NCBI GenBank assembly: GCA_051744825.1
Contig: JBNJDL010000002.1
Coordinates: 1 to 50,527 of the forward strand
Direction: 5' to 3'
From: Bacillota bacterium
Lineage (GTDB): Bacteria > Bacillota > Halanaerobiia > Halanaerobiales > DATFIM01
DNA length: 50,527 nucleotides
Below the pieces are notes generated by a model. That model was not told where the DNA came from. It saw only the letters and a list, made by a program, of their open reading frames with translations, and ran no database searches. This document shows positions 251 through 29,700 of the stretch, piece by piece (the stretch's first letter is position 1; every line of letters starts with the position of its first letter). A program made the position numbers and the translations under genes.

Positions 251-448
251 ATGGAAAAAGATTTAGACCGTTTTAGACCAAACAATCATTTTGCATTATA
301 CAAAGGTGATAAATTAATAACCATAGGTAATATATGGGATATAGCAGAACATCAAGGTGTTAAGGTATCAACTGCAAAAGTTTGGGCAATGAAAAGTCAT
401 AGAGAACGTGCAACTTGGGGAATGAAAGTTTTAATACCTTGTGATTAA
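251..448 (+). CDS. hypothetical protein (65 aa)
   Basis: ORF track. AGGTGA RBS upstream. Tightly tiled with its neighbours. Confidence 0.55.
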   Translation: MEKDLDRFRPNNHFALYKGDKLITIGNIWDIAEHQGVKVSTAKVWAMKSHRERATWGMKVLIPCD

Positions 449-1474: not shown

Positions 1475-2173
1475 ATGACTGAAGAAAAATTAGAATATAA
1501 GGTTAAAAATGAATCTAAAAAAAGTGATACAACTGCTGAAGGTGTATATATCAAAGTAGATGAAATTGATGAAGTTGGGGGTATCGGAACGAAACGCAAA
1601 GAAAAAATAGTTAATTATTTCAAAAAAAATAAAAACAATGATAAAAACCTGCCTACATATGCTAATAGAACTCAAAAGAATCAAATATTCATGGTCGGTG
1701 CTATAGAACAAGTTGCTTTGGCTACAAAAAAAGAGCTGAAAAGATATAATCAAAATGAAAGATTAATTAATTTGCTCGATATGATTGTATACGGCACTAA
1801 TCAATTCATAGGACATTATACAAAAAAAATGGACGGTAAATCAAAAGAATCTATTATAAATACAGCTAAGACTTTTACCCTTGATATGGTATTGAGAAAA
1901 GAATATAAAAGAAAGTATGAAAAAAATGAAAGAGATGCCAAAAAACAAAATAAAATAATAATGAATGAAGAACAAGGAGAAACATTACTTGAATTGTGTG
2001 AAGCAAGTTGTAGTGTTTGCACAGAATCAGGCGATGGTTGTAAATTTAAAAAATTATTATTAGATTTAGATGCTGAAGTTAAAAATACAAATCCTGAAGA
2101 TGGTGAATGTGTTTTCCGTTACAAAAGAAAGGGGAAAGATGAAATTAAAAACATACTTGAAGGAGAGAAATAA
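1475..2173 (+). CDS. hypothetical protein with a Cys-rich C-terminus
   Basis: AAGGGG RBS. C-terminal CEASCSVCTESGDGC...GECVF may bind metal. Confidence 0.6.
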   Translation: MTEEKLEYKVKNESKKSDTTAEGVYIKVDEIDEVGGIGTKRKEKIVNYFKKNKNNDKNLPTYANRTQKNQIFMVGAIEQVALATKKELKRYNQNERLINLLDMIVYGTNQFIGHYTKKMDGKSKESIINTAKTFTLDMVLRKEYKRKYEKNERDAKKQNKIIMNEEQGETLLELCEASCSVCTESGDGCKFKKLLLDLDAEVKNTNPEDGECVFRYKRKGKDEIKNILEGEK

Positions 2174-2633
2174 AACGGATATAGCTAAAAGTGATGATGA
2201 TGTAAAAAATATATTGCATATGGTTATTGGTCTTATTACAGAAATTGATGAAGTTATAAACTGTAAAAGCTATGATTTGAGCAATGAAGTTGGTGACTTG
2301 TTGTGGTATCTATATAAACCTTTAGGACTCAATAATAAAATTTTTTCAACTTCTAACCGTTTCAATAAAATACATGATTTATATTGTGAATATAGTTTGA
2401 AAGAATTAAAAATAAAAAGTTTAGATTCTTATAAGAAGGTTAAATATCAAAACGATAGTATAGATTATGTTAGGTCTGACGGTCATTCACACTTAGAAAT
2501 ATTTTCTTTGCTTATGCAAGCATGTTATAATATAGCACAAGACAAAATTAAAGCATTTGGAGTGAGCGAAGAACACATATTAGAATCTAATATTTCAAAA
2601 ATAAAAAAGGAAGGAAAATTCTATGAAAAATAA
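2139..2633 (+). CDS. MazG-like nucleotide pyrophosphohydrolase (paralog 1)
   Basis: LITEIDEV...EVGDLLWYL matches the MazG EExxE/D...E.gDllwy helix pair. I prefer ATG 2139 (RBS AAAGGGGAAAG) over the track start at 2070. Confidence 0.55.
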   Translation: MKLKTYLKERNKTDIAKSDDDVKNILHMVIGLITEIDEVINCKSYDLSNEVGDLLWYLYKPLGLNNKIFSTSNRFNKIHDLYCEYSLKELKIKSLDSYKKVKYQNDSIDYVRSDGHSHLEIFSLLMQACYNIAQDKIKAFGVSEEHILESNISKIKKEGKFYEK

Positions 2634-3093
2634 TAATTTGATTACTGATGCAATTATTAATCTCTGTATAACAGAAGAAATACAACAATATAAACCTGAT
2701 AAAATACAAGATGGTGATTTGTATTTCGATGGTGAGAAAATCCATGTAATAGCTGAAGATTTCTTAGGCATCGGTGAATGGACTGGTGTAAAAAATGCAT
2801 TAGAAATTGCTATCAAAGAAGATGGTGAAGATGTTGGTAAGGTTAGATATAACATAAGGACATTAAAAGATGCTGTTTGGATTCCTACCATACAACAGTT
2901 GATAGATATGTTGGAAGATGAATCGTCTGTAACTATATTACAAAGTCTATCCAACTCGATTCAAGAATATAAAATATATGATGAAACTAAAGAATCTTTT
3001 CATGCTGATTTGATAAAATATATTTGCTTGGAAAAATTTGGAATGACTTTTTGGAAAGGGGATTTGATTAAAAATGGGCAAATTATTAAATAA
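2623..3093 (+). CDS. hypothetical protein (156 aa)
   Basis: GGAAGGAAA RBS. Tiled ORF. Confidence 0.6.
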   Translation: MKNNNLITDAIINLCITEEIQQYKPDKIQDGDLYFDGEKIHVIAEDFLGIGEWTGVKNALEIAIKEDGEDVGKVRYNIRTLKDAVWIPTIQQLIDMLEDESSVTILQSLSNSIQEYKIYDETKESFHADLIKYICLEKFGMTFWKGDLIKNGQIIK

Positions 3094-3355
3094 AGATGGT
3101 AAAAAAATAAACAAAAATAAAAGGAAATGGAAAAATATATTTGTTCTAAAAAGTATCCCACATACAATGTATAGTGATGAACCAACTTGGTCTATTGATT
3201 TTCCTGATGTTGAATTCACGAAAGAAGAAATTTCTACTTTGGAAAGATGTTCTATATTGCTTAGTAATACATTAATTAATGCAATGACTAGGCATGAAAT
3301 AAATAAACAGCGTGATGATATATCAAATGTTGATGTTAACAAATTGAAAAAATAA
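3074..3355 (+). CDS. hypothetical basic protein (93 aa)
   Basis: ORF track. Last plus-strand gene before the bidirectional terminator. Confidence 0.5.
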   Translation: MGKLLNKDGKKINKNKRKWKNIFVLKSIPHTMYSDEPTWSIDFPDVEFTKEEISTLERCSILLSNTLINAMTRHEINKQRDDISNVDVNKLKK

Positions 3356-3372
3356 AAAAAGTGTGATATAAT
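3344..3372 (+). promoter_or_regulatory. candidate sigma70 promoter (TTGAAA, 17 nt spacer, TG-n-TATAAT)
   Basis: TTGAAA at 3344-3349, 17-nt spacer, extended -10 TGATATAAT at 3364-3372. The AT-rich background raises the chance this is a false positive. Confidence 0.3.
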
Positions 3373-3421
3373 ATATTTGATAATTCATTGTTAAACCCTT
3401 GAATTCTAACCCACAAAAATA

Positions 3422-3452
3422 CCCGCTTATTTAGCGGGCTTTTTGTTTTTTT
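3422..3452. terminator. bidirectional rho-independent terminator
   Basis: CCCGCT (3422-3427) pairs with AGCGGG (3433-3438) around a 5-nt loop. It is flanked by a T-run on the plus strand (3440-3452) and an A-run that reads as a U-run on the minus strand. It sits between the convergent gene sets. Confidence 0.65.
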
Positions 3453-3813
3453 GAGCATTACGTGTTAATGCTCGAAGTAGCCACGGTTCGGTTAATCTGA
3501 TACCATTTCGTGGCTTAATAATGATTGCTCCTAACTCCTCAAGGTCTTGCACTACATACCTTGTTTGCCTGTAATTCATGTCGAATACTTCTGACATTCT
3601 TCTTATTGAGGGAAATTTGAATTCTTGTCGGTAACAATCCATTATATATTGCAAAAATTGTCTTTGTTTCGGCTCAAGCTTATCAAAACCACGAAGCGTA
3701 CCGCTCCATCTTTTTTCTTTGTATAAGCTTAAACCGTCACGATAATAATCTGCTTTTTCTTCCCGTGGGTCTGTAGTTGCTTTTGTTTTATACCATTCTT
3801 TGCCTTTTCCCAT
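3427..3813 (-). CDS. LexA-N-terminal-like winged-helix DNA-binding protein (no peptidase domain)
   Basis: LEPKQRQFLQYIMDCYRQEFKFPSIRRMSEVFDMNYRQTRYVVQDLEELGAIIIKPRNGIRL resembles the LexA DNA-binding domain pattern (Lt.rQ..vl.fi...g.pPS.rE......s......l..Le..G.i....R.i.l). Only 128 aa long. Confidence 0.55.
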   Translation of the reverse strand: MGKGKEWYKTKATTDPREEKADYYRDGLSLYKEKRWSGTLRGFDKLEPKQRQFLQYIMDCYRQEFKFPSIRRMSEVFDMNYRQTRYVVQDLEELGAIIIKPRNGIRLTEPWLLRALTRNAQKNKKPAK

Positions 3814-3814
3814 A

Positions 3815-3967
3815 TTAAGACTCCTTTCTTTTGATTATTTTCAGATATTCTAAATCAACATTTTCTTGAACACTTGCTATACATAATGCTTCATATTCTG
3901 ATTCAGCTTCAATCTCAATAGTGTAGCTCCAGTTTGTAGGCTGTACACCTATTACATAAATCATCAT
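3815..3967 (-). CDS. small acidic protein (50 aa, hand-translated)
   Basis: MMIYVIGVQPTNWSYTIEIEAESEYEALCIASVQENVDLEYLKIIKRKES*. GAAAGGA RBS. Start overlaps the upstream stop (ATGA). Stop lies 1 nt before the next ATG. Confidence 0.45.
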   Translation of the reverse strand: MMIYVIGVQPTNWSYTIEIEAESEYEALCIASVQENVDLEYLKIIKRKES

Positions 3968-4110
3968 AACCAATCCTTTCTGTATTCTCTAACAACTTTT
4001 TTGATAAATGGAATCATCTCAATGATTATCCCACCTAAAATTACTATTGCAAATATATATAGAAAAGGCATACCGTCAAAAGCATATGCCCAAAATTCGA
4101 AAAAACCCAT
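3964..4110 (-). CDS. small membrane protein (48 aa, hand-translated)
   Basis: MGFFEFWAYAFDGMPFLYIFAIVILGGIIIEMIPFIKKVVREYRKDWL*. GAAGGAG RBS. One clear TM helix. Confidence 0.5.
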   Translation of the reverse strand: MGFFEFWAYAFDGMPFLYIFAIVILGGIIIEMIPFIKKVVREYRKDWL

Positions 4111-4139
4111 AAAATCACTCCTTCAACTACCTATTTTAC

Positions 4140-4388
4140 CTATTTGAAAATGTGTCTTTCTTTCAATTCTTTGTATTGATTGATAATACCAACAATCGAA
4201 AGTGATATTATCAAACTGGGAACGCCATATATTGCATATAGCTTTTTCCCTAGTTTTCTTCTTTTTTTCATTTTTGCCACAAAAATTTCTTGTGGCGATT
4301 GATACTTGTTTTTTAGAATATCAATTGTTTCCATTCCAATTCTATATAAATAGAAATTAATACTTATTATTATTATTATACCTTTCAT
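4140..4388 (-). CDS. small membrane protein (82 aa)
   Basis: AGGAGGGAA RBS. Hydrophobic N-terminus plus the VPSLIISLSIVGII segment. Confidence 0.55.
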   Translation of the reverse strand: MKGIIIIISINFYLYRIGMETIDILKNKYQSPQEIFVAKMKKRRKLGKKLYAIYGVPSLIISLSIVGIINQYKELKERHIFK

Positions 4389-4397
4389 AATTCCCTC

Positions 4398-4739
4398 CTA
4401 AAATTCTTTGATTTCAAAATCTAAAAATTCACCATTTTTGAAAACGATGTGTATATTATCGTCTTCAATGTTAATTCTTTCAATTTTTGGTGATATACTA
4501 TTAATTCTTATTCCACTTTCATGCAAGACTATGATTAATAATTCATCATAATCTAAGCCGTGCAATACATCACCATCAAGATGTAACTCCATTAGTTCTA
4601 ATATGGTATCTTTGCGAGCTAAATCAATAGTTATATCCATATCATCAAGTTCTAGGAAATGTCCTAAAAATGTTTCATCTTCGTCAACAAAGTTAATCTT
4701 TTCATCTTTTTTATCCCACTCAAACATAAATCTTTTCAT
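4398..4739 (-). CDS. hypothetical acidic protein (113 aa)
   Basis: AAGGAG RBS supplied by the 3' tail of ribozyme-like element A. D/E-rich. Confidence 0.65.
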   Translation of the reverse strand: MKRFMFEWDKKDEKINFVDEDETFLGHFLELDDMDITIDLARKDTILELMELHLDGDVLHGLDYDELLIIVLHESGIRINSISPKIERINIEDDNIHIVFKNGEFLDFEIKEF

Positions 4740-4833
4740 AAAAACACTCCTTGTATTCTAATTTTCTGATAGGCTATCTCATCAGTAGCGATTACCCAAT
4801 ATCGCTAGACTCCCAATTAAGGGAGTTTCGAAT
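4740..4833 (-). ncRNA. hammerhead-ribozyme-like element A (type II topology)
   Basis: Minus-strand RNA: AUUC GAAAC-UCCC-UUAAUU-GGGA-GUC^UAGCGAU-AUUGGGUA-AUCGCUA-CUGAUGAG-AUAGCCUAUCAG...AAGGAG. The GAAA, CUGAUGA and GUC cores are all in canonical order, with a 6-bp stem III and a 7-bp stem I. Predicted cleavage lies between plus coordinates 4808 and 4807. Confidence 0.7.
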
Positions 4834-5364
4834 TTAATCTTCAAAATTATCTAATTTAAATTCGTAAAAATTTTTGAATTCCTGCATTTTGCTTGCTATT
4901 GCAGGATATTCATTTTGAAATTTAATTGCTTTTTTGTATATTTTTTTCATTTCTTTCATCGCTTCGTCAAATTTTTCTAAAGCTATACTTTTCTGCTTTA
5001 GGTTTCTTTTTACCGCTTCAATATATTTTTTTACATCTTTTTGAAATTCATCTGCGGGAAAATCCCCGTTTTCATCTGCGACATTAAAGAATACTATGTT
5101 GCATCTTCCAAATTCATTGCCGTATTCAGTATCAAATTCCATTCTTTTTGTATTCTTAATTGCAATATTATCTTTATATACATCATTGATATATAGGTCA
5201 TCATCAATCTTTTTTAATCTTTTCTCAAACCAACGATTTATGCTTTTTCCGTCATAGTCAGCAAGTTTATCATCAAACTCCTCTCTTATTTTTTCAAGCA
5301 ATTCTAAATCCATTTTTAAAACTTTAAATTCTTTTTCAATTTTCCATTTAATATCTTTTTTCAT
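4834..5364 (-). CDS. hypothetical protein (176 aa)
   Basis: ORF track. RBS lies in the tail of element B. Stop abuts element A. Confidence 0.65.
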   Translation of the reverse strand: MKKDIKWKIEKEFKVLKMDLELLEKIREEFDDKLADYDGKSINRWFEKRLKKIDDDLYINDVYKDNIAIKNTKRMEFDTEYGNEFGRCNIVFFNVADENGDFPADEFQKDVKKYIEAVKRNLKQKSIALEKFDEAMKEMKKIYKKAIKFQNEYPAIASKMQEFKNFYEFKLDNFED

Positions 5365-5461
5365 AAAAACACTCCTTAAAATTCTATTTCCGATAAGGCT
5401 ATCTCATCAGCACAGGATACCCAATTCCTGCAGACTACCCAACAAGGGCAGTTTCGAATTC
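5365..5461 (-). ncRNA. hammerhead-ribozyme-like element B (type II topology)
   Basis: AAUUC GAAAC-UGCCC-UUGUU-GGGUA-GUC^UGCAGGA-AUUGGGUA-UCCUGUG-CUGAUGAG-AUAGCCUUAUCGG...AAGGAG. The stems differ in sequence from element A but keep pairing, including G-U wobbles. Predicted cleavage between 5433 and 5432. Confidence 0.7.
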
Positions 5462-5800
5462 TTAGACTAGTTGCCAGCCAGTCTTAGCAACTTTGTGTAT
5501 TACCTTGCCATTAGGCAATTCAACTTTTTTCCGATTGTCATTGTGGAAAATCTTAACTTCCACGTAATAATCAGAATGCAATTTTCCAAGTTGCATTACC
5601 ATGTATGGTACTGGTGATGCCATGACAACTGTACCGTCAAATAACGTTAGTTCTGATATTATGCTTTCCATTTCGTCGATATTCCAACCTGATGCTGGTA
5701 CTTCTTTTGTTTCCCAACTATCAAAGTTAGAATTAAGAATTTGTTCTTGTTCTTCCATAAGTGTGTGTTGCTCATTGATTATAACTATAGATTTTTTCAT
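5462..5800 (-). CDS. hypothetical protein (112 aa)
   Basis: ORF track. Flanked by elements B and C. Confidence 0.65.
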   Translation of the reverse strand: MKKSIVIINEQHTLMEEQEQILNSNFDSWETKEVPASGWNIDEMESIISELTLFDGTVVMASPVPYMVMQLGKLHSDYYVEVKIFHNDNRKKVELPNGKVIHKVAKTGWQLV

Positions 5801-5894
5801 AATATCACTCCTTGTATTCTAATTTTCTGATAGGCTATCATCATCAGCGATGGTTACCCAATACCATCGGACTGGGAAAAACCCCAGTTTCGAA
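5801..5894 (-). ncRNA. hammerhead-ribozyme-like element C (variant with an extra U after CUGAUGA)
   Basis: AAUUC GAAAC-UGGG-GUUUUU-CCCA-GUC^CGAUGGU-AUUGGGUA-ACCAUCG-CUGAUGA-U-GAUAGCCUAUCAG. Stems I and III are perfect. A one-nucleotide insertion sits at the core/stem II junction. Predicted cleavage between 5870 and 5869. Confidence 0.55.
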
Positions 5895-6308
5895 TTATTT
5901 TAATTTTTCTATTCTTATTTGGTGGTATTTTGCTTCCATTGCATCAATATCCAACTTGCCGTCAATCCCTGCGAAGTAACCGAAAGGGATATCTTTTTTC
6001 CAAAGCATTCTTTCGTACTTATCGAAACTCGAAAGAGCTTCTTCTAAGTCGTCAGCACACTCAACAAAATAGTCAAGTGCTTGACGGTCGTAAGAAGAAA
6101 GTACTTCGTCAAAACTCATATGCACTTCGCCGTCATTGCAATCGAAGATTGTAACGTATCCATCGCGAAAAACTAATGTAACTGTTTCGCTTGGCTTGTG
6201 ATTATATCCTTCTTCTTCAAGATACTTAACTAAGTCAATCCCTAAGTATCTATATGCTTCCTTAACTTCAACTTCTACATCTTCAATTTCTTCTGTTAAT
6301 TTAATCAT
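5895..6308 (-). CDS. hypothetical strongly acidic protein (137 aa)
   Basis: ORF track. By hand count about 33 D/E against about 16 K/R. Flanked by elements C and D. Confidence 0.65.
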   Translation of the reverse strand: MIKLTEEIEDVEVEVKEAYRYLGIDLVKYLEEEGYNHKPSETVTLVFRDGYVTIFDCNDGEVHMSFDEVLSSYDRQALDYFVECADDLEEALSSFDKYERMLWKKDIPFGYFAGIDGKLDIDAMEAKYHQIRIEKLK

Positions 6309-6400
6309 AGTAACAACTCCTTAAAATTCTATTGCTGATGGGCTATCTCATCAGTAACGACTACCCAATATCGTTAGACTGGGAAAACCCCAGTTTCGAA
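6309..6400 (-). ncRNA. hammerhead-ribozyme-like element D (type II topology)
   Basis: AAUUC GAAAC-UGGG-GUUUU-CCCA-GUC^UAACGAU-AUUGGGUA-GUCGUUA-CUGAUGAG-AUAGCCCAUCAG...AAGGAG. Predicted cleavage between 6377 and 6376. Confidence 0.7.
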
Positions 6401-6943
6401 TTATATACCTTTGTATCTTTGAAAATCTTCTTGGCTTGCAAATGCTCCGCCAAATGGACGATATTCTTCGTTCAACCATTCTTGATTTTTTCTGTATTGT
6501 TCGTCTTTCTCCATTAATCTTTGATGTTCTATTTTTTCATCTATTTCCATTGCTTTTTCTTCAGGCTTGAATCTTTTGAATAACTTGACTCTTTTCCCAA
6601 AGCTACTTAATTTCGAAAGCATTAAGTAATTTTCAATTTGGTATTCACGCTCAAAATTATCTTTAGCAACTTTTTTTCTAACTTTTTCCCGCTTTTCGTC
6701 ATATTCCTTGAATAGTTTTTTGATTTCGTGATAGGCATCAAAACCTTTCACTGTATACCATTTTTCAGTGTTATCATTATTATTACATATTATAACTTGT
6801 GTGAATTTTTCATCTGCATTATACAATTCGTTGAAACTACCGTTTCCGTCTGCAATCAAATCATAATTGCTTAGGTCTGGTGCTGGTACTTTCTTTTCAA
6901 CCATTTTATCTAATTTTTTTATCAAATTTGTATTCATTCCCAT
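6401..6943 (-). CDS. hypothetical protein (180 aa), first gene of the leftward operon
   Basis: AAAGGAG RBS. About 90-nt leader from the consensus promoter. Its stop overlaps the AAUUC of element D. Confidence 0.65.
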   Translation of the reverse strand: MGMNTNLIKKLDKMVEKKVPAPDLSNYDLIADGNGSFNELYNADEKFTQVIICNNNDNTEKWYTVKGFDAYHEIKKLFKEYDEKREKVRKKVAKDNFEREYQIENYLMLSKLSSFGKRVKLFKRFKPEEKAMEIDEKIEHQRLMEKDEQYRKNQEWLNEEYRPFGGAFASQEDFQRYKGI

Positions 6944-7015
6944 AATTCATCTCCTTTTCAAATCCCGCTCAAGCCAGTGTGTGACTTGATTTCTCTTTGC
7001 TTTGTTTCTTTGTAG

Positions 7016-7031
7016 TGTATCACCTGATACA
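7016..7031. promoter_or_regulatory. palindrome TGTATCA-CC-TGATACA at the predicted leftward transcription start (operator or 5' stem-loop)
   Basis: 7-bp perfect inverted arms with a 2-nt spacer, lying 5-6 nt downstream of the minus-strand -10 box. Confidence 0.45.
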
Positions 7032-7036
7032 ACCCT

Positions 7037-7065
7037 ATTATATAGCCATATTTTGTGTATGTCAA
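7037..7065 (-). promoter_or_regulatory. consensus sigma70 promoter for the leftward operon
   Basis: On the minus strand: TTGACA (7065-7060), exactly 17 nt of spacer, TATAAT (7042-7037). Confidence 0.75.
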
Positions 7066-7114
7066 GGGAAAATTTAATTTTTTTTCAAAAAATCTTTTTT
7101 TATTTTTTTGTCGA

Positions 7115-7123
7115 TGATATAAT
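7115..7123 (+). promoter_or_regulatory. extended -10 element (TGATATAAT) upstream of terS
   Basis: TG-n-TATAAT about 40 nt upstream of ATG 7165. There is no good -35. It is divergent from the leftward promoter. Confidence 0.4.
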
Positions 7124-7164
7124 ATAAGTAAGAAATATTAATGTTCGATAGGAGGGAGGGAATC

Positions 7165-7644
7165 ATGCCACGAGGAAGAAAACCACTTTGGGAAAAAAAA
7201 GATATGAAAAACCGACTTAATATTATCAAAGGTTGGGCAACAATGGGATTGACCGAGAAAGAAATGTACAATCAATTAGGTGTAAGTGCTGATACATGGG
7301 AAAATTGGAAAAATGACAAACCTGAATTCCTGAAAGCTCTCAGAAGCGGACAGATGGAAACAGTTGCCGAGTTAGTCGAATCAGCAAAGAAGCAAGCTCA
7401 AGGATATTTTGTTGTCGAAAAAACCAAAAGAATTAAGGAACATTATAATTCCGAAGGCGAGCTTGTTAGCACGGACGAAGAAACATCAACAGATAAGAAA
7501 TATGTCAAAGCAAATTCTTCTGTGACGAAATACCTCCTTAACAACTTATCGAACAAATTCGATAACAAAGCGACAATATCACACGAAGTCGAAAGTCTTG
7601 AAGATATTTTTGCCGAAGAATTGCACGAAAACTATGAAAAATAG
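7165..7644 (+). CDS. terS: terminase small subunit-like protein
   Basis: GGAGGGAGGG RBS then ATG 7165 (track start 7141 is less likely). The N-terminal HTH-like IIKGWATMGLTEKEMYNQLGVSADTWENWK is typical of TerS. Lies upstream of TerL. Confidence 0.6.
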   Translation: MPRGRKPLWEKKDMKNRLNIIKGWATMGLTEKEMYNQLGVSADTWENWKNDKPEFLKALRSGQMETVAELVESAKKQAQGYFVVEKTKRIKEHYNSEGELVSTDEETSTDKKYVKANSSVTKYLLNNLSNKFDNKATISHEVESLEDIFAEELHENYEK

Positions 7645-7649
7645 ATATC

Positions 7650-7780
7650 AAAGGAACGTTGGGATATAAACATTTATTGCAAGAAAATTAAGAAACTCCT
7701 TATTTTTGAGATAAATTTTTGCCCGCTTTTACCAAGCTTATTTCTAAGTTTTTGCCTACTCTTTCAGCCAACGTTCCTTT
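7650..7780. repeat. 13-bp perfect inverted repeat bracketing the terS-terL spacer
   Basis: AAAGGAACGTTGG (7650-7662) and CCAACGTTCCTTT (7768-7780) enclose 105 nt of non-coding sequence. Confidence 0.8.
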
Positions 7781-7804
7781 ATATATATAAAAAAAGGGGA
7801 AAAC

Positions 7805-9694
7805 ATGGGGAAATACAACATAGATAACATGATATCATTGAGAAAGAAAAGATGGAGAAACACAAAAAGCATCGAAGAAGATGTCAAACTCAGATTGTCT
7901 TTTGCCGAATACATATTAAGAAAAGATAATCAAAAATTATGGAAAGATTTGTATTACAATGAGGATAAGCTAATCGAATTGTTTTTTGTTGTAGTTAACA
8001 AGAAGAAAAAGACAGTACCGTTCTTCCTTAATTATGTACAAAGAAAATTCATTTCAAAAATTAAAAATGATAGAAAATTGAAGCGTGCAGGGAGAAAAAA
8101 ACATCAAAGGTATCTTATACTCAAAGGTCGTCAACAAGGATTCACGACTATTATTAGTGCGTTTCAGCTTGCTTGTGCTATAGTGCATAAGAATTTTGAT
8201 GGATATACTCTTGCAGACGATGCATCAAATACAGAAGATATATTTCAGGACAAGGTCAAACATGTATATGAGCTATTACCCGAAAAAATAGCACCATCTA
8301 GCATCTACAATTCCTCAAGAGTATTACATTTTGATACAAATGATAACCGAAAAAAAGGGCTTAATAGTAAGATTAGGGTACAAACAGCAGGAAACGAAGA
8401 TGCTGGACGGTCGAAAACAATCAACTTCTTACATATAAGCGAAGGGGCTTTTGTTCCCAAACTCAAGAAGCTATTAACAGGATTGACCGAATCTTTAACA
8501 AAAGATGTAATTGCAATTATTGAGTCAACAGCAAACGGATATAATGACTACAAAGAATTGTGGGATTCTAGCAACAACTGGGAAACTCTTTTTTATGAAT
8601 GGTGGAAAACGCCAGAGTACAGAATGGAATTTTCCGACGAAAAAGAGAAGGAAGAATTCCTAAATGGACTTAATTGGGCTGAAAATGAAGCAAAGAAAGG
8701 AAATAACAAAGAATACGAAGCAGACACCAAACAATGGATATACTCACGTTGTTGGTGGTTATATGACGAAATCGAATTGGATATGGAACAAATATATTTC
8801 TACTTCGACAAATGGGTTGATAAGAAAGAAAAAGTTAAGCAAGAATATCCTTGTACAGCAGAAGAAGCATTCCTTGCATCAGGCGGGAATTACTTCAATA
8901 TCGAAAATGTTGTTAGAAGAAAAAGAAAGATTGAAAACAAAGCACCTTCTAGACGTGGTGATTTTGAATATATATACACATTCGACGAAGACAGACAGAC
9001 CAAAAAAATAGATGATACGTCAATAAAATTTGTAGAAAGTTTGAAAGGAAGCGTTACAATATATAATGAGCCGAAAGAAGCAAAAGGATATGCTATTGGT
9101 GGTGATACAGCTTCAGAAGGGAAAGACTTCAATTTCGCACAAGTCATCGATAAGCAGGGAAATCAGCATGCTACAATCAAAATAGACAAGGACGAAGATT
9201 TGTATGCAGACCAAACTTATTGCTTAGGAAAGCTATATAACGGAGCGATAATAGCATTCGAAACTAATCACTCAACGCACCCAATCAAAGTATTAAGGGA
9301 AAGAGAATATCCTCGCATATATATACGTGGGCAATCGACCGACCAAATTAGCAGAAAAAAAAGAAATAAATTTGGATATTATACAACTAAAAAGAATCGT
9401 AACGAAATGTTAGGACAGCTTAAAACGTTGGTACGTGAACACCCTGAAAGAATTAATGATGTATACACGCTGAAGCAGATGATGACATTTGTAAGAGATG
9501 AAAATAACAAACCTGTTGCAGAAGAAGGAAAACATGATGATGCTATACTAGCTTATGCTATCGCATTGGCTATCAGGGATAATACCCCAAGAATAAAAGG
9601 TAAAAGTGAGAAAAAAAGTAAGGTACAATCTCATAAGGAAAATTTAGTCAAACAAAGGAGATTGAAAAGGAAAAGAGATAGGAGGCTTAGATAA
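7805..9694 (+). CDS. terL: terminase large subunit
   Basis: Walker A-like LILKGRQQGFTT, IIESTANGYN, nuclease-half GGDTASEGKDF and GKHDDAILAYAIAL. 629 aa. Confidence 0.9.
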   Translation: MGKYNIDNMISLRKKRWRNTKSIEEDVKLRLSFAEYILRKDNQKLWKDLYYNEDKLIELFFVVVNKKKKTVPFFLNYVQRKFISKIKNDRKLKRAGRKKHQRYLILKGRQQGFTTIISAFQLACAIVHKNFDGYTLADDASNTEDIFQDKVKHVYELLPEKIAPSSIYNSSRVLHFDTNDNRKKGLNSKIRVQTAGNEDAGRSKTINFLHISEGAFVPKLKKLLTGLTESLTKDVIAIIESTANGYNDYKELWDSSNNWETLFYEWWKTPEYRMEFSDEKEKEEFLNGLNWAENEAKKGNNKEYEADTKQWIYSRCWWLYDEIELDMEQIYFYFDKWVDKKEKVKQEYPCTAEEAFLASGGNYFNIENVVRRKRKIENKAPSRRGDFEYIYTFDEDRQTKKIDDTSIKFVESLKGSVTIYNEPKEAKGYAIGGDTASEGKDFNFAQVIDKQGNQHATIKIDKDEDLYADQTYCLGKLYNGAIIAFETNHSTHPIKVLREREYPRIYIRGQSTDQISRKKRNKFGYYTTKKNRNEMLGQLKTLVREHPERINDVYTLKQMMTFVRDENNKPVAEEGKHDDAILAYAIALAIRDNTPRIKGKSEKKSKVQSHKENLVKQRRLKRKRDRRLR

Positions 9695-9993
9695 TGATTG
9701 ATAAGTTACACGCATCACCTACAAGGTTGATAGTTGAGCAAAAAGAAGTTGAAAAAAAGACAGATAGCGGTATTATATTAGCGGTATCAGAGAAACAGAA
9801 GCAAGCACCGCAAATCATGCAAGTTGTCAAAGCAGGAATAGAATCAAAAGAAAAAATATCAGAAGATTACAACATAAAGGACCTGAAAGGCTTGAAAGTT
9901 GTAATACCAAAGTTTGCAGGAGTATCAATCGACGTAAACGAAAAAGAATACAAAGTTATAGAGTATGGCGATATATTAGCAGTAATTGAATAA
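9694..9993 (+). CDS. GroES/Cpn10-like co-chaperonin
   Basis: RLIVEQKEVEKKTDSGIILAVSEKQKQAPQ (mobile-loop region), GLKVVIPKFAGVSIDVNEKEYKVIEYGDILAVIE, 99 aa. Fits the GroES pattern (r.lvk..e.e.kT.gGI.lp.sakek, ....Y....e.DIlAvie). Confidence 0.75.
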   Translation: MIDKLHASPTRLIVEQKEVEKKTDSGIILAVSEKQKQAPQIMQVVKAGIESKEKISEDYNIKDLKGLKVVIPKFAGVSIDVNEKEYKVIEYGDILAVIE

Positions 9994-10003
9994 GAAAGGG
10001 GTA

Positions 10004-10468
10004 ATGATGAAGAAGTATAAATATATTTCTAAAAGAACAACACCGTTTAGAAGCGAATTTTATGGTTCTACAGACTTAGCTGATGTAAGAATAGGAAATG
10101 TAGATAACCCACATGTAGGTGTATCAATTACAACAGAAGAAGCTAAGCAAGTTGCGAAAGAATTAAATGAATTTTTTGATATAGAAAAAGAAGAAAAAGA
10201 AGAAAAAGAAAATGATGCAGTTGCAGAAGCAGAAGCAAAAATATTAGAATTAGAAGAAGAACTTGCAGATGCACAAAAGCAAGAAGATGAAACGGTAGAA
10301 TTCATCAAAGAGGAAATCCTATTTGGGCTGGAAGACTCTCAAATGCTGAAAAAAGAACAAATGAAGGAAATTATAGAAAAAACTGATATAGAAAATGAAA
10401 ATCTAGATAATTTGAAAGCATCAGAGTTATACAAGTTGTTGCTAGACAGAATAACAGTAGGTGTATAA
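10004..10468 (+). CDS. hypothetical acidic coiled-coil protein
   Basis: ATG 10004 or 10007 after AAAGGGG (the track TTG start at 9986 is unlikely). Contains EKEEKEEKENDAVAEAEAKILELEEE. Confidence 0.55.
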   Translation: MMKKYKYISKRTTPFRSEFYGSTDLADVRIGNVDNPHVGVSITTEEAKQVAKELNEFFDIEKEEKEEKENDAVAEAEAKILELEEELADAQKQEDETVEFIKEEILFGLEDSQMLKKEQMKEIIEKTDIENENLDNLKASELYKLLLDRITVGV

Positions 10469-10469
10469 T

Positions 10470-10700
10470 ATGGTGGAAATGATATTTATAGGCATTGTTG
10501 TAGCGCTTTATATTTTTGAGAAGTATACACACGTACAGGAAATCAAAGAAAGAGATAAAAAAGAGGAAATGTTACTTAATAGGTTACTTGGTCAAAACGA
10601 AAGTGATTATAAAAAAACACCAAAGAAAAAAGTTAAAAATGTAAAAAATAACATTAAAAAAAACATAAACAAAGATAGTTTGAGTCATCTCAAAAAATAG
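10470..10700 (+). CDS. small membrane protein with a basic tail
   Basis: ATG 10470 after AGGTG. TM segment MIFIGIVVALYIF followed by a K-rich C-terminus. Confidence 0.5.
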   Translation: MVEMIFIGIVVALYIFEKYTHVQEIKERDKKEEMLLNRLLGQNESDYKKTPKKKVKNVKNNIKKNINKDSLSHLKK

Positions 10701-10716
10701 TTAAGGAGGTGAAATT

Positions 10717-12789
10717 ATGGCTTATATGAACCGACAAAAGCAAGAAAGTACAACATTCCTTGAGAAAGGCAATGAGTTATCGGAAGAAGAAATAGCTAAG
10801 GTAGCAAAAGAAAAATATGAAGATGATATAGTTGATAGCGTCAAAAAAGAATTCAAGGAACGTTCTACTGATAAGCTTCCTTTGGTTTTGAGTTGGCGAT
10901 TATTGATGAACTTTTTAGACGGAAATCAGCACGTTAGAATCAACACATCAAAACAAAGTGTAGATGATACAACACCGATAGCATGGTGGGAAGAAAGAGA
11001 AGTATTTGACCAATTATCACCAATATTAGAAACTAGATTAGCAAAACTTAATCGTGCAGATACAGAACTCAAAGTGCGACCAGCAACAAGTGAAATGGAA
11101 GATATATCAAGTGCTAAGGTCGAAACTAGATTGCTTGAAGGACTTTTTAAGAAAGAAAATATGGAAAAAAAGCAAAAATTGGCTAATCTTTGGAGTGAAA
11201 AATTAGGAACAGTTTTTTGGAAAACAGGCTGGGACGAATCAAAAGGTAGAGTTGTAGGCATCAAAGAAATTGAAGAAGATGAAGAAGAATCACATTTTTT
11301 ACCTGAATTTGAAAGAGAACTACGGCAGTACAAAGGGAAATACATCAAAAAAATACATGAAGGTGATGTAGACGTTATGTATTGCACACCGTTTGAGATA
11401 TTCCCTGATTCGATGGCAAATGCCGATTGCTCTGAATGTAGAGATATAATTCATGCTAAAGCTTATAATACAGAAGAAATATTCGAAATGTTTGGCGAAA
11501 ATATGAAAGGCTCTACTCAAGATGTATTAGGACTAGAAGCTAATCAAGGAAAAACTGGTGGACTCGGTCAAAAGAATAATGATTATCGTATAACCAACAA
11601 AGAAATGGATAATGCGTGTATATTAGTTGAAAAGTGGGAATTGCCTACAAAACGGTATCCTCAAGGTAGATTAATAATGATTGCATTATCAAAAGAAGAA
11701 GAAAAATTGCTTCATTACGGCAAATTACCTGATTACCTAGAAGACCAAGGCAAATATGAATTACCATTTATCAGCCAAAAGTCAGAAGAAACTGGGGAAT
11801 TTTTTGGAAAAAGTGTATTTGAAAGGTTGTTACCGTTACAAAGAAGATATAATTCATTGAGAAACAGGAAAAAAGAATATCTTAACCGTGTATCAATCGG
11901 ACAGCTCACATATGAAGAAAATTCAATAGATGAAGATTTTTTCGAAGAAGAAGCATTAGCACCGGGGGCAATGATAGCGTATAAGCAAGGTTCTAACCCG
12001 CCAAGCTATTTAGATAACCCAAGATTACCTAGTGCATTCGATACAGAAGAAAACACCTTACAGATGGATTTTAATCGTATTTCAGGAGTATCAGAAATAT
12101 CAAGAGATTCATCAGCTCCAACAGGAGTAGGTTCAGGTGTAGCATTATCAATTTTGAAAGAACAGGACGATACAAGAATATCATTACCTGCTTCTTATAT
12201 ACAACAAGCTAGAATACAAGTGGGTAAGAAGCTATTGAAGGTGGTCAAGGAGAAAGTGGACTATCCTAGAAAATTAAAATATGCAGGGAAAGATGAAGAA
12301 GTAGCATTATTCAATTGGGATAAGAACGATATAACTTCATTTGATGTATATGTCGAATCAAAAGCAAGCTTATCAGAAACACCAGCACAAAGAAGACAAT
12401 TTGTATTCGATTTATTCAATGCAGGTCTATTTAACCCTGATATGCCAGAGATGTTACGTGCTAAGTTGATGCAGATGTTAGAATTAGGTAATTGGGAAGA
12501 TTTTGTAGCAGATACCAACTTGCATATTGAAAGGGCTAAAAAAGAAAATATGGCTATATCACGTGGTAAACAAGCTGAAGTTTGGGAAATTGATGACCAT
12601 GAAGCACACCTGAAAGTACATACTGATTATATGGTAAGCTCTGATTTTGCAGAATTAATTGCAGAACAACCCGAACTTAAAGAAAGATTAGATAATCATA
12701 GACGGCAACATTTAGAAATAGTTAGTCAAAAGCAAAGGCAAGTGGCTAAGCAAGAAATGGAAACACAGCAACAAGGAAGGGGAAGATAA
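10717..12789 (+). CDS. portal protein
   Basis: 690 aa, placed after TerL and before the scaffold and capsid genes. AAGGAGGTG RBS. Called on size and synteny. Confidence 0.8.
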   Translation: MAYMNRQKQESTTFLEKGNELSEEEIAKVAKEKYEDDIVDSVKKEFKERSTDKLPLVLSWRLLMNFLDGNQHVRINTSKQSVDDTTPIAWWEEREVFDQLSPILETRLAKLNRADTELKVRPATSEMEDISSAKVETRLLEGLFKKENMEKKQKLANLWSEKLGTVFWKTGWDESKGRVVGIKEIEEDEEESHFLPEFERELRQYKGKYIKKIHEGDVDVMYCTPFEIFPDSMANADCSECRDIIHAKAYNTEEIFEMFGENMKGSTQDVLGLEANQGKTGGLGQKNNDYRITNKEMDNACILVEKWELPTKRYPQGRLIMIALSKEEEKLLHYGKLPDYLEDQGKYELPFISQKSEETGEFFGKSVFERLLPLQRRYNSLRNRKKEYLNRVSIGQLTYEENSIDEDFFEEEALAPGAMIAYKQGSNPPSYLDNPRLPSAFDTEENTLQMDFNRISGVSEISRDSSAPTGVGSGVALSILKEQDDTRISLPASYIQQARIQVGKKLLKVVKEKVDYPRKLKYAGKDEEVALFNWDKNDITSFDVYVESKASLSETPAQRRQFVFDLFNAGLFNPDMPEMLRAKLMQMLELGNWEDFVADTNLHIERAKKENMAISRGKQAEVWEIDDHEAHLKVHTDYMVSSDFAELIAEQPELKERLDNHRRQHLEIVSQKQRQVAKQEMETQQQGRGR

Positions 12790-26772: not shown

Positions 26773-29700
26773 ATGAAATTTGAAAACTACACTTACAACA
26801 AAACAAAAGATGAAGATGATAAAAACAAAAAATTTAAATATGATAAGAGTAGAGCAAGTAAGTTGTATAACGATATTAGTGTTGACAATGTAAAATTTGA
26901 TAATTTAACATTCAAAGACCAAAAAACAGTTTTGCAATTTTCTGTAGACCAAGGTTTAGATGACTACAATGATTATAAAACTGATGTAATAAAAGATTAT
27001 GGCATTAAAAAGCCGTCTACTAGAACAAACACTACATTTACAGATGAAGGCAAAGTAGATTATGAAACTGAAAGCGTTGAATCAGAAGATAATTCAGGAG
27101 CTTTTTTTGGTAATGAAGTAAGCTATAATAATACACCTGAAGAAAATGCTAGATTGCAATCAGGTGATAAATTAAGAGATGATTTATTTAATTCAGCTAT
27201 TGAAGGTAAAACTAATCAGGGGAAGTTCTATGATTCTAATGATTCCCCTGCATCAAAGCTGAATTTAGATTCTTTATCATCAAAAGAATTATTTAATAAA
27301 GGTATTTATAGCGAAGGTGTAAAGAAAGAACAAGAAGAAATAAAGAATAAAAATCAATCTTTAGTTAAGACTCCTTATGGTGAAAAAACTTATGAAGAAT
27401 TCATGAAAGAAGTTGAAGAAAAGAATGATGTAGCAACTAAATTTAATCAAAAAAGATTAATGAAAAAACCAGTTGAATTAAAAAAATCACAGGTTAATTC
27501 TGAAAATTCAAATGAACCAGCACCTGAACCATTTGATTATATGACAAAAAAAGATTATGCTAACACTTATAAAGGTTTAGACATTGCGTTTAAACCTATT
27601 ATCCCTGCACAAATCCAAGTTTTGGATTCAAGCGGTAAATTGGATAAAGAAGCAACAAAAAAAGCTAGAGAGAGATTTGAAAATGGTGATTCAGTTAAGA
27701 AAACAGTCGGTGGAAGACATATGCATTATAATAAAGATGGTTCTATAGATACAGAAAGAATGAAAGAATCATATAAGACTGAAATGAATTACAAGAAAAA
27801 TGAGTCGCCAGTTGATGTAGATGAGTTATTAGATAAAAGCAGAGATGATTTCATAAATGAAGATAATTCTTTTAGTTTTGGTGCGTTAAAAGAAGATGTA
27901 ATAAGAAAAAGGATTTATAATAAAAGAAGTGAAATTTTAGGTCAAATGGCAGTTAAAGGTTCTAATGATGAATTAAAAAAAGATTTAGCTAAAATTGATT
28001 TGTTTATTGAAAACAATCCTGAAATGCAAGATTCTGAAAAAACTAAAGAATTTAGAAAAGAACATAAAATTTTAGGGTTCTTAGACAAAGGCATATCAGG
28101 AGTAACTGAACAAATTACACTTTGGACTAATAATTTAGGTGAAAAAGCAATGTTTACTGGATTAGGAGCTTTAACAGGAAATCCTCAAGCTGGTTATATT
28201 GCAGGTTCATCAAAAGATATGTTTATGATTGAAACAGGTAATGCATATGAAGAAGCTAGAAAAGCTGGAGTACCACATGAAATAGCTAGGAAAGAAGCTA
28301 TGAAGGCAGGGGTTATTAATGCTGGTATAGAATCAGGTCAAATGGCTTTATTTTTAGCAACGTCAGGATTGTCTAAAATAGGTTTATCAGGAGCTTCTAA
28401 AGTAGGAGCGGGTACTGTAGATAAATTATTTGGTAAATTTGCTTCTAAAGTAGCAAGTAAAACTGGTAGTCAATTAGCTGGGAAAGTAACTGAAATTGGT
28501 ACTAGATGGGGTGCTGGTGCTGTAGGTGAAATGACACAAGAGGGTTTACAAGCGGTAATGAGTAAGAAATATGTTAATGATTCAGTTAATTTAGCAGTAG
28601 AACGTGGATTTTTATCTAAAAATGAATTAAGAGAATATGATTTTGATGATTATTCAAAAGTATTTTCAGATGAATTTAAAGCTGTTGCACCTACTATGAT
28701 AATGTTAGGTGGTATTGGTGTAGGCACAGGTCAAGTTGTAGAAGCTACTAAAAACCATTTTGAAAAGCAAGATAAAAGAGCAAGACAGTTGTATGTTGCA
28801 AAATCAATGGACGAATTAAAATTTCAATCAAAGAAAATTGCAGAAAATCCTGAACATTTTGTAACTGGTGACAAGAAACAAAAAATAATGAATGATGTTA
28901 ATAATTATATTGAGTTTGCTAAAAAATATAAAGAAGATTTTTCAGAAGTCGCTGAATCCGACTTAGGTTTTGATGCAGATTTTGATGAAGTTTTAGATTT
29001 GTTAAACAACTATAAAAAGTATTTAAATGACTTAGAGCAAAATACAAAAGATACTTTAACTAATTCTATTGATTTTGAATTAGAAGAAGGAACTATAGAA
29101 AAAGCAAAAGAAGAATATTCAAAACTTGAAAAGGTATATAAAAATATTGGAATGTCAGAAGAAGATTTAATTGAAGTTAGAAATAAAATAGAAAATAAAG
29201 AAATTGAAAATGAAAAGTTTGTCAATAATATGGATAGTAAAAATTTAGGGAAAATAAAAACTCAAAGAAATAAAAACAATTTAAATATTGATGAACTTGA
29301 AAAAGAAATAATTTCTATTGATGAAAAAATAGAAAATACTGAATCAAAAAAACAAATTGAAGAATTAGAAGAACAAAAATCTTTAAAAGTATCAGAAATG
29401 GAAAATCTGATTAATGACAATGCTATAATTACACAAGAAATAGAAAACAGAATAGAAAGTAATGAAACAGGTAATACTGAAGAACAAGAAAGTTATCAAT
29501 CTCTATATGAAAAAACTAATGAAAATATTGAAAATAAAAATATTAGAATTGAACAAAACGAAATTGAACAAAACGAAATTGAACAAAATAAAATTGAACC
29601 GTTATCAGCCGAAGAATTAAAAAATAAAACAATACCATCTGATAGAGATTTTGAAAGTTTAGGCAGTAGAAAAATAAAATCTATGCAAAATGAATTTGAA

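Follow-up and report, generated by a model that had tools for sequence, protein, structure and literature searches.

Five consecutive minus-strand genes of contig JBNJDL010000002.1, from a Bacillota bacterium of the order Halanaerobiales, are separated by four intergenic segments that resemble each other, and the question raised by this locus is whether these segments are self-cleaving ribozymes that divide a common transcript or conserved repeats of another kind. The segments lie between positions 4740 and 6400 of the stretch of DNA analyzed, which is 50,527 nucleotides (nt) long and is referred to below as the window. An earlier reading of the letters (the original prediction) had proposed that each segment holds a hammerhead ribozyme of the permuted type II topology, and that a polycistronic RNA is cut at all of them. 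The computational analysis reported here favors the interpretation that the four repeats are genuine self-cleaving type II hammerheads, embedded in one polycistronic phage transcript which they would cut into gene-length pieces. A probability of about 0.82 can be given to this interpretation, self-cleavage being deduced here from membership of the ribozyme family.

Layout of the locus and of the four repeats

The five open reading frames (ORFs) concerned occupy, in the order of the minus strand, positions 6401-6943, 5895-6308, 5462-5800, 4834-5364 and 4398-4739, and they are separated by 92-97 nt. Each of the gaps between them (6309-6400, 5801-5894, 5365-5461 and 4740-4833) contains one complete type II hammerhead on the minus strand. 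The homology claimed for these gaps is reflected in a mean column identity of 78-82% in their alignment, and the coordinates that had been given for them are exactly those of the inter-ORF gaps. The idea of a five-gene stretch with a repeat in every gap is correct for the first five ORFs, but the operon has four further small minus-strand ORFs without a ribozyme (4140-4388, 3964-4110, 3815-3973 and 3427-3813), which are separated by gaps of 0-29 nt or overlap. The four elements are listed next, with the lengths of the flanking ORFs in amino acids (aa) and with the scores obtained with two covariance models, RF02276 and R2, that are described below.

6333..6402, minus strand: hammerhead D (type II), between the 180-aa and 137-aa ORFs; C17 at 6377, predicted cut 6377/6376; stem III CUGGG/CCCAG, stem I UAACGAU/GUCGUUA; RF02276 38.4 bits, R2 71.5 bits
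5825..5896, minus strand: hammerhead C (type II variant), between the 137-aa and 112-aa ORFs; C17 at 5870, predicted cut 5870/5869; extra U between A9 and G10.1 (CUGAUGA-U-GAU); RF02276 none, R2 65.5 bits
5388..5460, minus strand: hammerhead B (type II), between the 112-aa and 176-aa ORFs; C17 at 5433, predicted cut 5433/5432; stem III CUGCCC/GGGUAG, stem I UGCAGGA/UCCUGUG; RF02276 47.2 bits, R2 63.8 bits
4764..4834, minus strand: hammerhead A (type II), between the 176-aa and 113-aa ORFs; C17 at 4808, predicted cut 4808/4807; stem III CUCCC/GGGAG, stem I UAGCGAU/AUCGCUA; RF02276 46.4 bits, R2 77.6 bits

On the minus strand, every copy reads (A)AUUC-GAAAC, a hairpin, GUC, a second hairpin with the loop AUUGGGUA, CUGAUGA, GAU and AGCCY, with the extra U in copy C. 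In nearly all of these particulars the original prediction proved to be an accurate description: (A)AUUC-GAAAC was read in the four copies, the stem III sequences are the ones it gave (that of copy C being the same as that of D), stem I has 7 bp and a sequence of its own in each copy, its loop is invariant, the tail AGCC(U/C)A is present (copy B reads AGCCUUA), and the four cleavage coordinates agree with the numbering of the sequence. The statement that needs correction is that of CUGAUGA followed directly by G in every copy. CUGAUGA itself occurs in the four copies, but copy C continues with the inserted U before the G, a base that had been overlooked.

Conservation of the core and covariation of the stems

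The hammerhead core was taken as C3-U4-G5-A6-N7-G8-A9, G12-A13-A14, a pair A15.1-U16.1 and an unpaired C17 (or other non-G) at the cleavage site. The corresponding elements CUGAUGA, GAA, A15.1/U16.1 and GUC are invariant in the four copies. The order in which they occur (5′ strand of stem II, GAAA, stem III hairpin, GUC, stem I hairpin, CUGAUGA, 3′ strand of stem II) is that of the permuted type II topology, as had been proposed.

Concerning the helices, the 80 pair cells that result from considering stems I, II and III plus a pseudoknot in four copies are all occupied by standard pairs. Compensatory double changes were found at 9 of the 20 pairs, distributed as 6 of 7 in stem I and 3 of 6 in stem III. 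The observed pairing or covariation was reached by none of 500 column shuffles, and when the 3′ partners were slid by 1-3 columns the pairing fell to 24-57%. The co-variation earlier claimed for stem III was borne out, and stem I was found to co-vary too, both stems being 100% paired in the four copies. The pair G10.1-C11.1 that closes stem II (alignment columns 6 and 60) is C-G in every copy and is followed by a U-A pair.

The pseudoknot is formed by UGGGU of loop I with AGCCY(A) of the tail. It comprises five pairs, is 100% paired in the four copies and shows a single, one-sided change. Within the window, stem II and the pseudoknot lack covariation, as neither of them co-varies across the four copies. 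In a set of 108 distinct viral homologues, the helix formed by each loop I with its own tail had a mean length of 4.82 bp, versus 3.68 ± 0.08 bp after permutation, with a maximum of 3.87 bp in 200 permutations. A pseudoknot of at least 4 bp, formed by loop I with the bases located just 3′ of stem II, has been described for most type II hammerheads (PMC3088659). So, the contact that had been put forward as a candidate from the window is paired in its four copies, co-varies in the viral homologues and is the one published for this class of ribozyme.

The copies have a mosaic character. The 3′ tail GAUAGCCUAUCAGAAAAUUAGAAUACAAGGAGUG is identical in A and C (4740-4790 versus 5801-5850, minus strand), and the 3′ tail AAUAGAAUUUUAAGGAGU is common to B and D (5365-5395 versus 6309-6340, minus strand), whereas stem III brings together A and B on the one hand and C and D on the other. 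The disagreement of both groupings suggests recombination between copies.

Assignment to the type II hammerhead family

A scan with the type II hammerhead model of Rfam had been suggested as a check of the original prediction. It was run with Hammerhead_II (RF02276) of Rfam release 15, which has a gathering cutoff of 37 bits, and copies A, B and D scored above this curated cutoff. Copy B was found with 47.2 bits and E = 1.2e-06 in a scan of the whole window, copy A with 46.4 bits in a 6-kb scan, and copy D with 38.4 bits only when a stretch of 131 nt was searched.

A second model was used to score copy C in a non-circular way. Type II hammerheads were gathered from IMG/VR by means of a loose pattern, which gave 107 loci (L001-L107), a sample biased by a TTCGAAAC pre-filter. 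The model, R2, was constructed from 139 aligned hammerhead matches in unrelated viral contigs, with no sequence of the window included. When the 50.5 kb were searched on both strands with the filters off, R2 gave 77.6 bits for A, 71.5 for D, 65.5 for C and 63.8 for B, with E-values from 1e-18 to 1e-22, while the next best match in the window scored 12.9 bits (E = 0.1). The gap between the four copies and the next match indicates that the window contains exactly four copies, C included. On the strength of these scores, the four repeats are type II hammerheads.

The transcription unit and its predicted processing

The elements that delimit the transcription unit are the following.

7037..7065, minus strand: sigma-70-type promoter TTGACA-17-TATAAT, 12/12 consensus, best site in 3300-7300, upstream of the first gene
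3427..6943, minus strand: cassette of nine small ORFs, with ribozymes in the first four gaps
3421..3439, both strands: bidirectional intrinsic terminator hairpin, with terminator-like sites on both strands, after the last cassette gene

From the position of the promoter we infer a transcription start near 7030. The promoter and the terminator bracket one unit of about 3.6 kb, and no terminator-like site occurs between them on the transcribed strand, the repeats included. The single polycistronic transcript of the original prediction is well founded on account of this bracketing; the qualification of that transcript as "early" is an assumption. The terminator at 3421-3439 is common to the minus-strand cassette and to the convergent plus-strand replication genes. 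Some weak Rfam matches to "leader" families at the same positions are spurious, as they correspond to the terminator portions of the leader models.

The processing that can be proposed is as follows. Transcription of the minus strand would run from the promoter near 7030 to the terminator near 3420, and each intergenic element would fold as it emerges, with stems III and I formed as local hairpins. The two-pair stem II (UC/GA) would then close, and the tail immediately following it, AGCCY(A), would be captured by UGGGU of loop I; the resulting pseudoknot would dock stem I against stem II and organize the CUGAUGA/GAA core. The RNA would cut itself 3′ of GUC by internal transesterification. The products expected are of about 0.65 kb (gene 1), 507 nt (gene 2), 437 nt (gene 3), 625 nt (gene 4) and about 1.4 kb (genes 5-9). 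In each cut, the upstream product would keep its stop codon and would end in the stem III hairpin with a 2′,3′-cyclic phosphate, while the downstream product would start with a 5′-hydroxyl on the stem I hairpin and would contain, some 20 nt past the ribozyme, its ribosome-binding site AAGGAG. The stability and the translation of the single messages could be uncoupled in this way. From what is generally known of bacterial mRNA decay, ends capped by hairpins and devoid of triphosphate might slow down exonucleolytic and 5′-end-dependent degradation.

Related ribozymes are active. Clustered prophage hammerheads cleave in vitro, and those with the arrangement of Agrobacterium tumefaciens do so also in Escherichia coli (PMC3088659). 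Besides, three type II hammerheads cleave in vivo in Desulfovibrio vulgaris (PMC8782182).

Several observations weigh against the proposal of four active ribozymes. Stem II consists of only two canonical pairs (UC/GA) followed by a U.U mismatch, and it never varies. The minimum free energy and the centroid structures computed with RNAfold contain both stem I and stem III, but in the four copies they have the CUGAU(G) of the core sequestered by a (C)AUCAG located downstream; since RNAfold cannot score the pseudoknot, these fold energies are not decisive against activity. Copy C gave no match with RF02276 even at E ≤ 10 in a search of 131 nt, and an insertion after A9 occurs in none of the 108 distinct viral homologues. 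An orthologous locus keeping these copies over evolutionary time was not found in the searches of viral contigs, metagenomes and terminase relatives. Finally, the purpose of such processing is unproven for any phage, and a review of 2019 still listed it as undefined (PMC6765202).

The case of copy C deserves a separate comment. Its extra U, at position 5840 of the minus strand between A9 and G10.1, is absent from the three sister copies. An additional nucleotide at this place is known from natural hammerheads in the plus strand of chrysanthemum chlorotic mottle viroid (CChMVd) and in Penelope-like elements, and the CChMVd hammerhead with the insertion remains active, at a moderately lower rate (PMC1636495, PMC4209133). 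Copy C likewise has one extra base at exactly that position. On the other hand, the CChMVd and Penelope-like ribozymes are hammerheads of types I or III from eukaryotic viroids and retroelements, whereas copy C is a phage type II hammerhead and the base inserted is a U. By analogy, the cleavage of copy C may be altered, in the sense of being slower. Since the U occurs in only one of the four sister copies, it may have arisen recently by mutation and not have been selected. The absence of the insertion in the 108 homologues may likewise mean that C is a slower ribozyme or a recent mutant.

Alternative interpretations

The position of the stop codons has to be considered before weighing the first alternative. 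The upstream stop ends 3-6 nt before G12 in the four copies, so that the stops at 4834, 5462, 5895 and 6401 abut or overlap the 5′ strand of stem II. The same regularity was found in the family. Among 157 family matches in viral contigs, 106 display the order stop codon, ribozyme, ribosome-binding site and start codon, as in this window. In 121 of the 157, an upstream ORF of 50 codons or more terminates no further than 30 nt from G12. The distance from the end of its stop codon to G12 is 2-6 nt in 96 of these 121, most often 3 nt, as exemplified by UAA-UUC-GAAA. The downstream start lies at a median of 31 nt after A9 and is preceded by a motif like a ribosome-binding site in 80% of the cases. 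Stop codons and translation are not mentioned by Perreault et al. 2011 (PMC3088659). This abutment of stops throughout the family is a small regularity, observed in a sample biased by the TTCGAAAC pre-filter, and it may be due to plain genome compaction. An unlikely interpretation is that the stop placement is functional: a terminating ribosome would keep the ribozyme unfolded, so that cleavage would report the translation of the upstream gene, and in this locus the CUGAU/AUCAG hairpin seen in the computed folds would add a post-cleavage or off state. If this were true, phage hammerhead arrays would be translation-coupled switches and not constitutive scissors, which would provide a handle on what bacterial and phage hammerheads are for.

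The hairpin that competes with the active fold was analyzed across the family. A pairing of CUGAU(G) with (C)AUCAG or AUCGG, of 5-8 bp, is possible at 4766-4785, 5390-5410, 5827-5847 and 6335-6354 (minus strand). As a conserved switch of the family it was rejected, because it can be formed by 29% of 113 tails, compared to 30% of shuffled tails. The lack of enrichment over shuffled tails makes it a peculiarity of this window.

With these data, it can be asked whether the hammerheads are here inactive, or active only under certain conditions, the AUCAG hairpin competing with the pseudoknot and terminating ribosomes sitting on the stop next to stem II, so that cleavage would be regulated by folding kinetics or by translation. 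Such a situation agrees with the stop spacing just described, and with the competing hairpin, which every copy can form (100% of its cells are paired) and which belongs to the minimum free energy and centroid folds of all of them. However, the hairpin has no compensatory change and is not enriched in the family, and the tight spacing of the stops may merely reflect genome compaction. In addition, AGCC, the partner of loop I in the pseudoknot, is transcribed before AUCAG, which would give a kinetic head start to the active fold. Taken together, these arguments make inactive or conditional ribozymes a quite improbable interpretation as compared to straightforward self-cleavage.

Another possibility is that cleavage is real but its purpose is not simple mRNA maturation. 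The pieces could be rejoined into circular or spliced RNAs, either by the reverse reaction or by a host ligase of the RtcB type, or else cleavage could destabilize the expression of the cassette or set its timing. The architecture of the repeats would lend itself to rejoining, as stems I and III are self-contained hairpins and the four copies do not differ in stem II (UC/GA), loop or tail; for this reason, the joining of the 3′ end left by one copy to the 5′ end left by the upstream copy would reconstruct a complete chimeric hammerhead. Perreault et al. raised this possibility, but their search for circular or spliced RNAs derived from such arrays was negative (PMC3088659). Furthermore, nothing in the window indicates a dedicated ligase, and every fragment has an ordinary ribosome-binding site and start codon, as corresponds to linear mRNAs. 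Rejoining, or a purpose of this kind, is considered very unlikely.

Hardly any credence can be given to the last alternative, namely that the repeats are a non-catalytic intergenic regulatory module (promoters, terminators, or a site for an RNase or a binding protein) with an incidental resemblance to hammerheads: a -10-like TAGAAU is kept in the four tails about 8 nt before the ribosome-binding site (4755-4760, 5381-5386, 5816-5821 and 6326-6331, minus strand) and gap A contains one weak promoter-like match (9/12), but this is the only one of the four gaps that reaches even 9/12, the -35 hexamers are poor, the transcribed strand is free of terminators in the repeats, the core nucleotides are invariant while the stems change by compensatory substitution, and the scores obtained with Rfam and with R2 greatly exceed the background. 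The particular version with a promoter or a terminator in each repeat was rejected for the first and third of these reasons.

Comparison with known hammerhead arrays

Self-cleavage of the four repeats being preferred, the locus can be compared to known systems. Multiple hammerheads flanking individual prophage genes have been reported, and the processing of long phage transcripts into single-gene mRNAs has been proposed for them (PMC3088659). The arrangement that the original prediction called striking is, in this respect, already published, and it is common in viral contigs: among about 110 loci, other IMG/VR contigs hold same-strand arrays of 3-10 copies, e.g., 10 in L104, 8 in L003, 6 in L056, 5 in L001 and 4 in L069. 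The array of L104 (IMGVR_UViG_3300009788_000096; 2046-12377, minus strand) accommodates its 10 type II copies in about 10 kb, and that of L003 (IMGVR_UViG_3300000217_000001; 3615-6708, plus strand) has its 8 copies in about 3 kb, with spacings down to 229 nt.

With the known type II hammerheads (RF02276; PMC3088659), the repeats share the core, the permutation (stems I and III closed, stem II open), the pseudoknot between loop I (UGG...) and the 3′ side (...GCCA), and the phage context. They differ in that stem II has two canonical pairs followed by U.U, in that one same pseudoknot sequence occurs in the four copies, and in the extra U of copy C. The prophage clusters of Clostridium scindens, Azorhizobium caulinodans and Agrobacterium tumefaciens (PMC3088659) likewise have copies on the same strand between small unknown or accessory genes, and both in them and in the window the flanked genes are not conserved between loci. 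The window differs from those clusters in that its four copies are of one close subtype and occupy successive gaps of a single cassette, which has its own terminator and a consensus promoter; its cleavage is predicted from the sequence.

The cleavage of a polycistronic RNA into gene-length pieces, which the computational evidence supports for this locus, is thus not new, and the window provides a clean but ordinary example of it. The class of ribozyme, its pseudoknot and its placement beside single phage genes were all published, and existing knowledge is left unchanged. The value of the locus resides in its being compact and well delimited, with one promoter, one terminator, four sister ribozymes with orthogonal stems and one variant with an insertion in the core. 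The cassette would be convenient for asking whether cleavage sets the relative stability or the translation of neighboring messages.

Relatives of the repeats and of the locus

Close relatives of this locus were sought in several ways. A megablast search of 4000-12000 against 50,697 phage records gave no match. The exact pattern of the subtype, TGGGTA..CTGATGAGATAGCC, had 0 matches in viral contigs; it was matched by six metagenome contigs, none of which is a real relative, as the best model scores were 22.5 and 18.3 bits and both sequences were devoid of the GAAAC half. In L131 (Ga0265297_10062696; 375-443, plus strand) the 3′ half is near-identical to that of copy B (UUGGGUA...CUGAUGAGAUAGCCUUAUCGG), with no recognizable half containing GAAAC and stem III; this element may be a degenerate or differently permuted relative. 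The use of the terminase as a query yielded relatives at 37-44% identity in 4 viral loci and in 15 loci of metagenome-assembled genomes of gut Clostridia/Eubacteriales, and no hammerhead was present in the 313 kb of these terminase-relative loci.

Cassette proteins and phage context

The seven cassette ORFs of at least 82 aa did not match any Pfam or NCBIfam family. When the same seven were searched against PHROGs, only that at 3427-3813 matched, weakly, a family of unknown function (phrog_3502, E = 0.0064). Sequence searches of the Protein Data Bank with the 137-aa and 113-aa proteins gave nothing significant; a search for homologues of the 137-aa protein in a collection of 5.8 billion proteins returned only itself, and an exact look-up of the 176-aa protein gave no record. 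By tblastn, the cassette proteins had no match in 132 fetched loci, and the genes flanked by the ribozymes in the IMG/VR arrays are unrelated to those of this window. The spreading of the ribozyme by gene duplication was rejected, since the flanked proteins are not paralogues of each other. Two of the proteins flanked by ribozymes, those encoded at 5895-6308 and 4398-4739, are highly acidic (net charges -17 and -18, isoelectric points of about 4.4). They are reminiscent of the DNA-mimic anti-restriction proteins, but without sequence similarity to anything found.

Judging from its gene content, the window represents the whole or a large part of a phage genome: replication genes are present, and the small and large terminase subunits (TerS and TerL) are encoded next to the ribozyme cassette. 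The plus-strand genes encode Erf, an SbcC-like protein, a DnaD-like replication initiator, RusA and a MazG-like protein, and then come TerS and TerL. The block with the ribozymes (3427-6943) is the sole minus-strand unit, self-contained and located between the replication and packaging modules. The long run of plus-strand ORFs after the terminases is taken to be the structural module. In this module, after a 777-aa ORF, the plus strand contains a single ORF of 5360 aa (26773-42855) with a PBECR5 nuclease domain (Barnase/EndoU/ColicinE5-RelE-like), a ParB_N domain and a methyltransferase domain, which looks like one of the giant "polyvalent" proteins of phages.

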